A DNA stretch of 35,248 nt from positions 1-35,248 of the IMG/VR virus record IMGVR_UViG_2563366961_000002; one strand, written 5' to 3'. The notes beneath the pieces were generated by a model. It was given only the letters and a program-made list of their open reading frames with translations, had not been told where the DNA came from and searched no databases. Shown piece by piece: positions 13,713 to 14,913 of the stretch. Origin of the DNA: a virus. Lineage: Duplodnaviria > Heunggongvirae > Uroviricota > Caudoviricetes. Numbering within the stretch: the first letter of the stretch is position 1; each line of letters opens with the position of its first letter. The position numbers and the translations under genes are program-made.

Positions 13713-13898
13713 ATGACACCACGCGAAATAGCCTTATTGACCATCGCCAAACTTGAGCACGGAGGCCACCAGCTTACACAGGCAGATCAACGGGAGATAG
13801 AACGATCAGTTAATGCCGATATAGCCCGGCGCGACAGGTTCCGCGAAATGATGCGAGCACCTGCCTACCAGTGGAAGAAGCCAGCGCCGCGCAGGTAG
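13713..13898 (+). CDS. hypothetical small protein (61 aa)
   Basis: ORF with GAGGG about 10 nt upstream. Confidence 0.35.
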   Translation: MTPREIALLTIAKLEHGGHQLTQADQREIERSVNADIARRDRFREMMRAPAYQWKKPAPRR

Positions 13899-14018
13899 AT
13901 ATGGGATTATTCCACATGTAACTTATGCGTATTAAGCAAATTTCCTTTATTCACCTTTACAGAATTGTGAGTACGTCAGTATCGTTATCCTTCCGATTCG
14001 CATTTATTCAGGATTTGC

Positions 14019-14561
14019 ATGTACCAGCTAAAGATAACCATCCGAGACAGCAAACCACCTATATGGCGGCGTGTGCTGGTTCCAGAGCAAATCCCCTTTA
14101 GTAAACTTCATGCCGTGATCCAGTTAGCTTTTGGCTGGAATGACGAACACCTGTATATGTTCGAGAAAGGGCGTAAAGGTGATCCAGGTAGCGAGTATCG
14201 CGTATGGGGTGAGGATGAAAGCATGGGTAACGCGGCAATCACGCCACTATGGGCGGCGCTCCAGAATGAGGGTGACAAGCTGGTTTACACGTATGACTTT
14301 GGCGACTGGTGGGATTGCGTCATTGTGCTGGAGAAGCAAACACACGATACGAGTAATCAGCCCATTAGCTGCCTGCGTGGGAAAGGCACCACCCCGGCGG
14401 AAAACTCAGGCGGCTTGCATGGTTACAATGAATTGCTATTACAGGCCAGAGAGTCTGATAATCCTGAGCAGGCCGAGATCCACAATTTCCTGATGCTGGA
14501 TATTGAACGCCGGGTTTACGACCTGAGCCGCATCAACGACAGATTGCAGGCTATTAACTGA
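14019..14561 (+). CDS. pRiA4b ORF-3-like domain protein (PF07929-like)
   Basis: N-terminus YQLKITIRDSKPPIWRRVLVP...LHAVIQLAFGWNDEHLYMF matches the recalled family motif. Confidence 0.55.
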   Translation: MYQLKITIRDSKPPIWRRVLVPEQIPFSKLHAVIQLAFGWNDEHLYMFEKGRKGDPGSEYRVWGEDESMGNAAITPLWAALQNEGDKLVYTYDFGDWWDCVIVLEKQTHDTSNQPISCLRGKGTTPAENSGGLHGYNELLLQARESDNPEQAEIHNFLMLDIERRVYDLSRINDRLQAIN

Positions 14562-14913
14562 CCCGCATGTATTCACCTGATATTGCGTTGTCAGCGCCGC
14601 CAGTATCGCGCATAACAGCGCACTGACCGGGTAAACCGTAGCGCACGACCGTTGCGTTAGTATCACCGCCGCGCCGTATCTGGCGCGATTCATACACTGT
14701 CACCCGCTCAAGCAGTCCACCAGCAACCATGCTTTCCAGTGTGCGCCGGGTTGATTCGAGCTGGTGACGCTTATCGAACGACACCATGCCATGAAGCAGG
14801 TAGGCCACACCCGACACATCGAACGGCGGCGCACCAATCTCACCAGTCACCCATTCGAGGTTATCCGGTTCAAAGTAGCTAAGTATCTCTTTTTTGCGGC
14901 TGGTCATTCTCAT
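14554..14913 (-). CDS. hypothetical protein, possible winged-helix
   Basis: ATG with AAGGAA 11 nt upstream; convergent with 14019-14561. Confidence 0.4.
   Translation of the reverse strand: MRMTSRKKEILSYFEPDNLEWVTGEIGAPPFDVSGVAYLLHGMVSFDKRHQLESTRRTLESMVAGGLLERVTVYESRQIRRGGDTNATVVRYGLPGQCAVMRDTGGADNAISGEYMRVS

Follow-up and report, generated by a model that had tools for sequence, protein, structure and literature searches.

What does a gene of the PRiA4_ORF3 family (PF07929) do at the very end of a phage satellite? The question is raised by positions 13713 to 14913 of the 35,248-nucleotide stretch of DNA analysed here (the window; IMG/VR record IMGVR_UViG_2563366961_000002), where such a gene, called PRiA4 below, is found between a small upstream open reading frame (ORF) of 61 amino acids (aa) and a convergent gene of 119 aa. 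An earlier note, made from the sequence, had proposed that the three form an uncharacterised accessory or defence-like cassette. The three genes belong to the last 1.4 kb, at the right end, of a phage-inducible chromosomal island (PICI) of the EcCIMP1 type, a satellite of P22-like phages of ~20 kb that is integrated at tRNA-Thr. In this island, the gap between the 61-aa and 119-aa genes is a variable slot, and PRiA4 is a single accessory insert between conserved satellite genes. The element type has already been published, several of its proteins are identical to those of EcCIMP1, and nothing at the locus is categorically new; new here are the placement of PRiA4 in a defined variable slot between two satellite backbone genes and the view of PF07929 as, broadly, a family of transposable-element passengers.

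The Variable Slot at the Right End of the Island

The slot and its borders comprise the following features.

13713–13898, + strand: 61-aa gene, an ORF (RefSeq WP_000188903.1) with a product of isoelectric point (pI) 10.8; conserved satellite backbone and left border of the slot
13899–14018, + strand: AT-rich spacer of 120 bp upstream of PRiA4, within a 662-bp indel relative to empty-slot islands
14019–14561, + strand: PRiA4 gene (PRiA4_ORF3 / MM3350 fold; RefSeq WP_000284450.1), 180 aa, acidic (pI 5.1); single-gene accessory insert
14554–14913, − strand: 119-aa gene, with which the island ends; its transcription runs inward from the side of the right attachment site (attR)

According to the ORF map, the PRiA4 and 119-aa genes are convergent with an 8-bp overlap, and all three ORFs carry RefSeq annotation. 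Pairwise ratios of non-synonymous to synonymous substitution rates (dN/dS) against orthologues from other genera are 0.04–0.11 for PRiA4, 0.07–0.21 for the 119-aa gene and 0–0.35 for the 61-aa gene. Given this annotation and the low dN/dS values, the three ORFs are genuine genes rather than chance ORFs. The map thus bears out the small upstream ORF and the convergent partner described in the earlier note, as well as the accessory location in a mobile element between a PerC-like gene and an AT-rich region; the GC content is 0.33–0.42 from ~15000 onward, i.e., downstream of the three ORFs. Scans for promoter and terminator consensus sequences returned sites that were no more numerous than in shuffled sequence; the spacer holds one weak sigma-70-like site (13956–13985), at a frequency not above chance.

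Three sets of loci were compared: 27 species-level loci encoding a relative of the 119-aa protein, contigs with divergent relatives of the 119-aa or PRiA4 proteins, and annotated Escherichia coli examples. All loci (labels beginning with L) were scored by phmmer for the proteins of the window. The gap between the 61-aa and 119-aa genes measures 16–20 bp where the slot is empty (Shimwellia L018, Yersinia L027 and L029), always 655 bp where PRiA4 is the sole occupant (E. coli, Enterobacter, Kluyvera, Lonsdalea), and 575–4856 bp with other contents. PRiA4 can share the slot with a Panacea-antitoxin pair (L002, L015), a Dabb protein (L051/L052) or a transposase of the insertion sequence (IS) family IS256 (L022); in the latter, no clear inverted repeats of the element were found, so that PRiA4 inside and PRiA4 outside the element are not distinguishable. 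Without PRiA4, the slot is occupied by a 151-aa backbone gene or by genes for a CHAD protein, a DUF2280 protein or a nested integrase; in Klebsiella, it contains a set of three genes. The Klebsiella set (278, 213 and 264 aa) is conserved in the slot of L007–L010 (locus positions ~8659–10935); searches of Pfam and PADLOC gave only a weak helix-turn-helix (HTH) match, in its middle protein.

The borders of the insert are sharp. Aligned by blastn with the empty slot of L018, the window is homologous through the stop codon of the 61-aa gene (13898) and again from 14561, which is the last base of the PRiA4 stop codon. The intervening 662 bp, consisting of the 120-bp spacer and PRiA4, replace 27 bp of L018, and the last two to three codons of the 119-aa gene are remodelled. 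Extra cargo always occupies the interval from the 61-aa gene to PRiA4 and never the junction of PRiA4 with the 119-aa gene; the upstream spacer is replaced in islands with such cargo. In strain Survcare253, which has a Panacea toxin-antitoxin pair upstream, homology to the window begins at ~14017, i.e., ~2 bases before the PRiA4 start.

The distribution of the three genes speaks to whether they form a cassette. They are contiguous in 347 E. coli genomes and also in Enterobacter, Kluyvera, Lonsdalea and Atlantibacter, which supports such a unit. However, the 61-aa and 119-aa genes are also found as a pair in the absence of PRiA4, and PRiA4 adjoins the 119-aa gene in only 8 of the 27 species-level loci, the remaining 19 having the 119-aa gene without it. 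Among complete E. coli genomes, a 119-aa-like gene is present in 493 and PRiA4 in 375, leaving at least 118 that carry the former without the latter. In a PICI of O157:H7, an inward-facing 119-aa-like gene comes directly after PerC, and both PRiA4 and the 61-aa gene are absent. In Serratia (L040), a 77%-identical PRiA4 lies between a DUF2280 gene and a Phd/Doc pair, and no 61-aa or 119-aa gene was detected within the 9.2 kb recovered. The families also differ in size: the 119-aa family comprises 542 clusters (90% identity) versus ~25 in the enterobacterial PRiA4 clade, and the source-named members among the 120 listed 119-aa matches are all from Enterobacterales species. Because of the slot structure, the unequal genome counts, the solitary PRiA4 of Serratia and the unequal family sizes, the three genes are not an obligate unit across the loci, and the three-gene cassette proposed in the earlier note is largely refuted. 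The co-occurrence in ~350 E. coli genomes is co-inheritance in one mobile element and is no demonstration of functional coupling.

Linkage and Co-Divergence of the Slot Genes

The junction between PRiA4 and the 119-aa gene is constant. The same 8-bp overlap is present in every locus in which both genes are intact (L011–L017, L022, L039, L043), and the two genes co-diverge down to ~70–75% identity. Synonymous divergence (dS) from the window, PRiA4 against 119-aa gene, is 0.21/0.26 in L012, 0.32/0.34 in L016 and 1.7/1.5 in L022. The dS values of the 61-aa gene, in contrast, are discordant with those of PRiA4 (0.56 vs 0.07 in L003; 0.05 vs 0.27 in L017). This discordance, together with the cargo inserted between the two genes, indicates that the 61-aa gene recombines independently of PRiA4; it also counts against the three-gene cassette. 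In our reading, recombination tends to occur at the left side of the slot.

In a neighbour-joining tree of the 119-aa proteins, the PRiA4-linked ones form one tight clade plus a distant outlier (L022). The PRiA4-linked clade also encloses two Shimwellia islands that lack PRiA4, and some islands without PRiA4 have 119-aa genes that are 89–92% identical. We read PRiA4 as an accessory gene whose place beside the 119-aa gene became fixed in a single satellite lineage, and which was occasionally lost or replaced. The stable junction may reflect function, and the physical overlap of the two genes explains it equally well.

Identity of the Island: an EcCIMP1-Type PICI

The assignment of the island is based on its site, its terminal gene order and its gene content, for which the following features are needed.

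2681–5440, + strand: TOPRIM/DUF927 primase gene, an ORF that marks the element as a PICI-type satellite
12419–12874, − strand: 151-aa conserved satellite gene, with phmmer matches in loci of other genera
13134–13415, + strand: PerC/ANR-family regulator gene (PF06069, E = 3.7e-30; RefSeq WP_000617443.1; equivalent to EcCIMP1_025), immediately upstream of the three genes
15115–15124, + strand: attachment (att) core TCCTATTATC (attR, right end of the island), ~200 bp beyond the start codon of the 119-aa gene

EcCIMP1 is a 19,963-bp PICI of E. coli MP1 (Pick, Stadel & Raivio, ISME J 2025), which is integrated at tRNA-Thr in the proA/yagU interval with the att core TCCTATTATC (PMC11773190). The P22-like phage Kapi1 induces and transfers it; excision, circularisation and transfer have been shown experimentally in MP1, and the PerC protein EcCIMP1_025 represses LEE1 (PMC11773190). 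The window is E. coli chromosome: positions 8078–35248 match NZ_OZ547117.1 at 99.97% identity, in the region downstream of tRNA-Thr (thrW) and proA. The att core occurs once in the window, at a chance expectation of 0.03, and yagU follows downstream at 29055–29669; most E. coli matches to 12900–15600 stop at window ~15127–15151.

The MP1 records (GenBank OR778291 / CP139039) contain the same RefSeq proteins for PerC, the 61-aa protein and PRiA4 as the window, and an MP1 119-aa gene that is 99.4% identical; these are the last genes before the published island boundary. The window copy thus shares with EcCIMP1 the tRNA-Thr site, the att core, the terminal order PerC/61-aa/PRiA4/119-aa, the TOPRIM/DUF927 primase and a module of P22-like ejection proteins. 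In gene content, too, the island agrees with this type, which combines an integrase, an AlpA-type regulator, a primase and PerC and lacks capsid, tail and lysis genes. The PICI-typical content seen within the window is the primase, ejection-protein genes and PerC. The integrase gene int and alpA of the window copy, like the left junction of the island, lie outside the window; the full set is contained in the SWHEFF_68 and MP1 islands, and the left junction is visible in near-identical islands such as that of SWHEFF_68.

Window positions 92–12900 are 99.1% identical to the annotated island of E. coli SWHEFF_68. The left part of this complete island contains tRNA-Thr, a tyrosine integrase, DUF6387, HTH, an AntA/AntB antirepressor, DUF4222 and an Ash-family gene; the middle has the TOPRIM/DUF927 primase, DUF2824, P22-like ejection/injection proteins and three leftward genes; the right part has PerC, the 61-aa gene, PRiA4 and the inward 119-aa gene, followed by an integrase remnant and yagU.

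The window copy differs from EcCIMP1 of MP1 in several respects. In the middle of its island are genes for a gp16-like injection protein and a SieA-like membrane protein as well as the 73-aa and 151-aa genes; the middle of the MP1 island instead contains genes for a lytic transglycosylase and a 232-aa hypothetical protein, and the excisionase-like gene alpA_1. It carries IS1 insertions, owing to which it may be defective, and its right neighbour is a capsid-encoding island, as opposed to a vat/MarR island in MP1.

The PRiA4 Protein and Its Family

PRiA4 is a clear member of PF07929, as the earlier note had suggested and a domain search now corroborates (E = 1.1e-42; 146.2 bits against a cut-off of 26.6); residues 2–170 align to profile positions 3–167 of 173. 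The only solved member of the family, MM3350 of Methanosarcina mazei (PDB 2I1S, ‘hypothetical protein’), is matched at E = 3e-21. The AlphaFold2 model of PRiA4 is confident (predicted local distance difference test, pLDDT, of 90) and has the fold of 2I1S, a beta-grasp plus helices. A structure search returned only 2I1S, SNAPC3 and ubiquitin-like folds and no enzyme; a comparison with a viral structure library gave nothing useful.

Members of PF07929 are acidic, with a pI of 4.3–5.5 in 34 of 36 aligned sequences. The columns of His31, His44, Asp93, Asp96, Glu105 and Cys118 are invariant or nearly so, and PRiA4 has the family motifs PxWRRV, GWxxxHL and YxYDFGDxW. The PRiA4 proteins of enterobacterial satellites form a separate clade, with 58–97% identity within and at most 44% to other PF07929 proteins; throughout this clade, the family motif CPPEDxGG is changed to TPAENSGG, and WEH to WDC. 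The statement that the family is without established function also stands: full-text literature searches on PRiA4_ORF3, PF07929, MM3350, 2I1S, the InterPro identifiers and the IS1096 tnpR gene yielded no functional study. A mention of pRiA4b in a paper on pMF1 partition refers to VirC1 and not to ORF-3.

Passengers of transposable elements are what PF07929 genes, taken broadly, appear to be, and this is the clearest family-wide pattern. They have been described in transposons of the ISAzba1 group (PMC3942029). In Marinibacterium, the PF07929 gene overlaps an unclassified transposase gene by 4 bp; in Picosynechococcus, an ISKra4-like (ISSysp7) transposase gene lies 4 bp downstream of it; Pseudosulfitobacter and IncX3 resistance plasmids share the order PRiA4, resolvase, ISKra4-type transposase. 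Among phages, that of Pseudomonas phage Marin is found 3 bp after an IS66 transposase gene, and that of mycobacteriophage LouisV14 in a TnpA/‘TnpR’ pair. In these plasmid and phage loci (L048, L049, L050, L054, L055 and L057), the transposition modules belong to unrelated families, the gaps often being 3–5 bp or replaced by an overlap. By tblastn, relatives were detected in 2794 of 72,556 plasmids (~4%; 1892 of them conjugative) versus 4 of 50,697 phage records. Many members have ordinary chromosomal contexts, among them the distant member P0214, whose context is uninformative. The adjacency to transposition modules may be the best clue to the function of the family.

The transposon passengers (IS1096 ‘TnpR’, the ISAzba1 group, ISKra4-like elements and IS66 in Marin) resemble PRiA4 of the window in being single small genes of the same family on mobile DNA. 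Unlike these, PRiA4 of the window has no adjacent transposase or serine recombinase, the nearest IS1 being ~5 kb away; it is flanked by satellite backbone genes and is just 23–33% identical to the transposon-borne copies examined.

Possible Functions of PRiA4

The anatomy of the locus is very probably as described: converging 61-aa and 119-aa genes ~200 bp inside attR, a variable slot between them, PRiA4 as insert, a co-diverged overlap and a 119-aa protein that is probably a winged-helix protein. Concerning the mechanism, we propose that PRiA4 would be a protein-binding accessory factor of the mobile element, serving phage interference in this PICI, which is conceivable but doubtful. Anatomy and mechanism taken together are, to our mind, the best explanation of the locus, and we adopt it tentatively.

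PRiA4 would, accordingly to this proposal, bind a host or helper-phage protein to the benefit of the mobile element, and in the PICI it would interfere with an incoming or competing phage. Protein binding is proposed because PRiA4 is acidic and not a membrane protein, has a beta-grasp fold and no recognisable catalytic fold, is subject to strong purifying selection and belongs to a passenger family. Phage interference is proposed because the 3′ ends of PICIs are documented sites of immune genes (PMC11364771). EcCIMP1 gives Kapi1 lysogens superinfection immunity, for which PADLOC and DefenseFinder found no known system (PMC11773190), and PRiA4 would be a candidate behind this immunity. That PRiA4, alone or with the 119-aa protein, determines the helper-dependent superinfection immunity of EcCIMP1 is unlikely.

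Several observations weigh against this proposal. None of eight proteins encoded in window 10982–15894 matched PADLOC-DB v2 at E ≤ 0.1, and no recognised defence system was found by PADLOC among the other slot occupants. The variable end slot with conserved flanks, whose contents vary between related islands, is a likeness to the immune regions at the 3′ ends of Gram-negative PICIs and to P4-like hotspots; in contrast to these, no occupant of this slot matches a known defence system, and anti-phage activity is here only extrapolated. Since PADLOC matches neither PRiA4 nor the other occupants, the label of a defence hotspot would be an extrapolation from other PICIs. The EcCIMP1 paper does not discuss the PRiA4, 61-aa and 119-aa genes (PMC11773190). 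A SieA-like membrane protein encoded at 10982–11596 (− strand) is a more conventional candidate for immunity against P22-like phages. Furthermore, the invariant His, Asp and Cys residues could indicate metal binding or catalysis instead of simple protein binding; the constant overlap may reflect a functional pairing of PRiA4 and the 119-aa protein in this lineage; and the association of PF07929 with DDE transposases and serine recombinases hints at DNA mobility no less than at phage interference.

This last association is the basis of the strongest alternative, in which PRiA4 is an accessory factor of DNA mobility that modulates a recombination or transposition complex; in the PICI, it would act with the integrase and the 119-aa protein at attP/attR (directionality, timing or target choice). 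The location of PF07929 genes within a few bp of, or overlapping, DDE transposase genes of unrelated families argues for it. Most related islands, however, are without PRiA4, including those with 89–92%-identical 119-aa genes, so that PRiA4 is dispensable for the satellite life cycle; PRiA4 of the window has no transposase beside it; and the acidity of PRiA4 and of its family disfavours direct DNA binding. IS1096 derivatives with a disrupted tnpR still transpose. We consider this alternative somewhat unlikely.

PRiA4 might also be a counter-defence (anti-restriction or anti-immunity) protein which blocks a host defence protein and thereby shields the incoming element. Small size, acidity, the single-gene format and the lack of an enzymatic fold would suit such a role, as would carriage on plasmids (in the numbers given above), transposons, few phages and satellites and the position at the extreme end of the PICI genome. 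On the other hand, the structure search revealed no likeness to a known anti-defence protein, PF07929 is rare in phages, where counter-defence genes are usually common, and many family members are found in ordinary chromosomal contexts; the idea is quite improbable. A functional cassette of all three genes, or an effector/regulator or toxin/antitoxin-like pair of PRiA4 and the 119-aa protein, is very improbable indeed, given that the pair's identical overlap and co-divergence, and the lack of cargo at its junction (which the overlap explains trivially), are set against convergent genes that form no operon and the absence of a PADLOC match. As an obligate toxin-antitoxin or effector-regulator operon, the pair is rejected on account of the convergence, of the 19 species-level loci and at least 118 E. 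coli genomes without PRiA4, and of the Serratia PRiA4 with no 119-aa gene in the 9.2 kb recovered.

The locus is outside the known defence systems, toxin-antitoxin types and transposons, whose defining features were looked for and not found. In itself it is ordinary, the right end, already annotated, of a PICI known from the literature; its value is that of a test bed. PF07929 has a well-conserved fold and recurs on the mobile DNA of bacteria and archaea, and EcCIMP1/Kapi1 is a tractable system with a clean PRiA4 insert and natural empty-slot relatives as controls. If PRiA4 were, against the odds, the determinant of the EcCIMP1 superinfection immunity, this would provide the first function for this widespread family of transposons, plasmids and satellites, and a new mode of single-protein phage interference built on the beta-grasp fold. 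The locus could also reveal whether the 3′ slot serves as a hotspot of immunity, as is the case in P4 and in other PICIs.

The Genes That Border the Slot

The 119-aa protein is tentatively a winged-helix protein. It had no match in Pfam, NCBIfam, PHROGs, PADLOC or PDB, either as single sequence or as profile, and a Pfam search with all 22 aligned members of its family returned nothing. An exhaustive hidden Markov model search of 1.84 billion representative proteins collected just 91 clusters, and tblastn against the 50,697 phage records gave one weak match; the family appears narrow and close to satellite-specific. The sole informative fusion is that of a distant relative (P0296, 200 aa) with a C-terminal T5orf172/MUG113 domain (E = 2e-12). 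T5orf172/MUG113 domains are commonly attached to DNA-binding modules, and the fusion fits a DNA-binding role of the 119-aa-type N-terminal domain. We infer that the 119-aa protein is a DNA-binding regulator or an architectural protein of the satellite. It does not depend on PRiA4, since most of its relatives occur without it. The gene faces incoming rightward transcription, and because of this, antisense interference may possibly act on it. The 119-aa gene is not alpA_1 of EcCIMP1: the latter is EcCIMP1_023 and precedes PerC (_025) (PMC11773190), and MP1 has an annotated 52-aa HTH gene upstream of PerC, which likewise rules out this identity.

One relative is placed on a replicon filed as a non-mobilizable plasmid (L043; NZ_CP033626.1, Klebsiella pneumoniae ‘plasmid unnamed1’, 22,859 bp). 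It has the look of a related PICI in circular form, part of whose sequence is present twice; among its genes are int, PRiA4 and the 119-aa gene, along with those for AntA/B, an Icd-like protein, a primase, a single-stranded DNA-binding protein (SSB), PerC and a tape-measure-like protein. Between int and the 119-aa gene, which are transcribed away from each other, lies a 442-bp region that must contain attP. This suggests an excised satellite that was assembled as a replicon.

The 61-aa protein is strongly basic and weakly matches phrog_7271 (E = 2e-6); by tblastn, it had no match among the phage records. Its homologues adjoin the 119-aa gene in many genera, with or without PRiA4.

Other Features of the Island and Its Neighbours

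The product of the PerC gene scored 31.1 bits against ANR_neg_reg of NCBIfam, just below the cut-off of 32. The 151-aa protein had no match in a Pfam search. Homologues of its gene were detected by phmmer in L005, L006, L007–L010, L021, L023, L028, L030 and L032; in other genera, it is found between the 61-aa and 119-aa genes and co-oriented with the latter.

Homologues of P22 ejection proteins (DUF2824/gp7-like, gp20-like and a gp16-like ‘injection protein’) are encoded at 6203–10962 (+ strand). Phage satellites are not usually described with ejection-protein genes of the P22 type. An IS1 at ~8095–8792 splits the gp20-like gene, and a second IS1 fragment occupies window positions 1–91. The SieA-like protein (204 aa) is a predicted membrane protein from a patch of 33% GC with a weak match to phrog_7745 (E = 4e-4); in EcCIMP1 of MP1, another gene takes this place.

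At the left end of the satellite, a C4 antisense RNA (Rfam RF01695; 79.9 bits, gathering score 45) was detected at 175–262 (+ strand). It is near Ash-family sequence, and Icd-like genes are nearby in related islands. This suggests a C4-icd-ant immunity module of the P1/P7 type in the EcCIMP1-type PICI family.

The AT-rich DNA to the right of the att core is the left arm of a second element and is located directly beside tRNA-Thr in other strains. This second thrW-associated element, in tandem with the first (window 15125–28357), resembles a capsid-forming PICI. It starts with ~3.3 kb of AT-rich DNA with almost no annotated genes, present in 764 E. coli genomes. Next are genes for an HTH protein and a major capsid protein, then genes interrupted by IS2 and a baseplate-like gene; a tyrosine integrase gene is at the right end. 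Immediately downstream of yagU, in the core chromosome, an IS009 RNA (Rfam RF02111, 193 bits) is located at 29675–29875 (+ strand).

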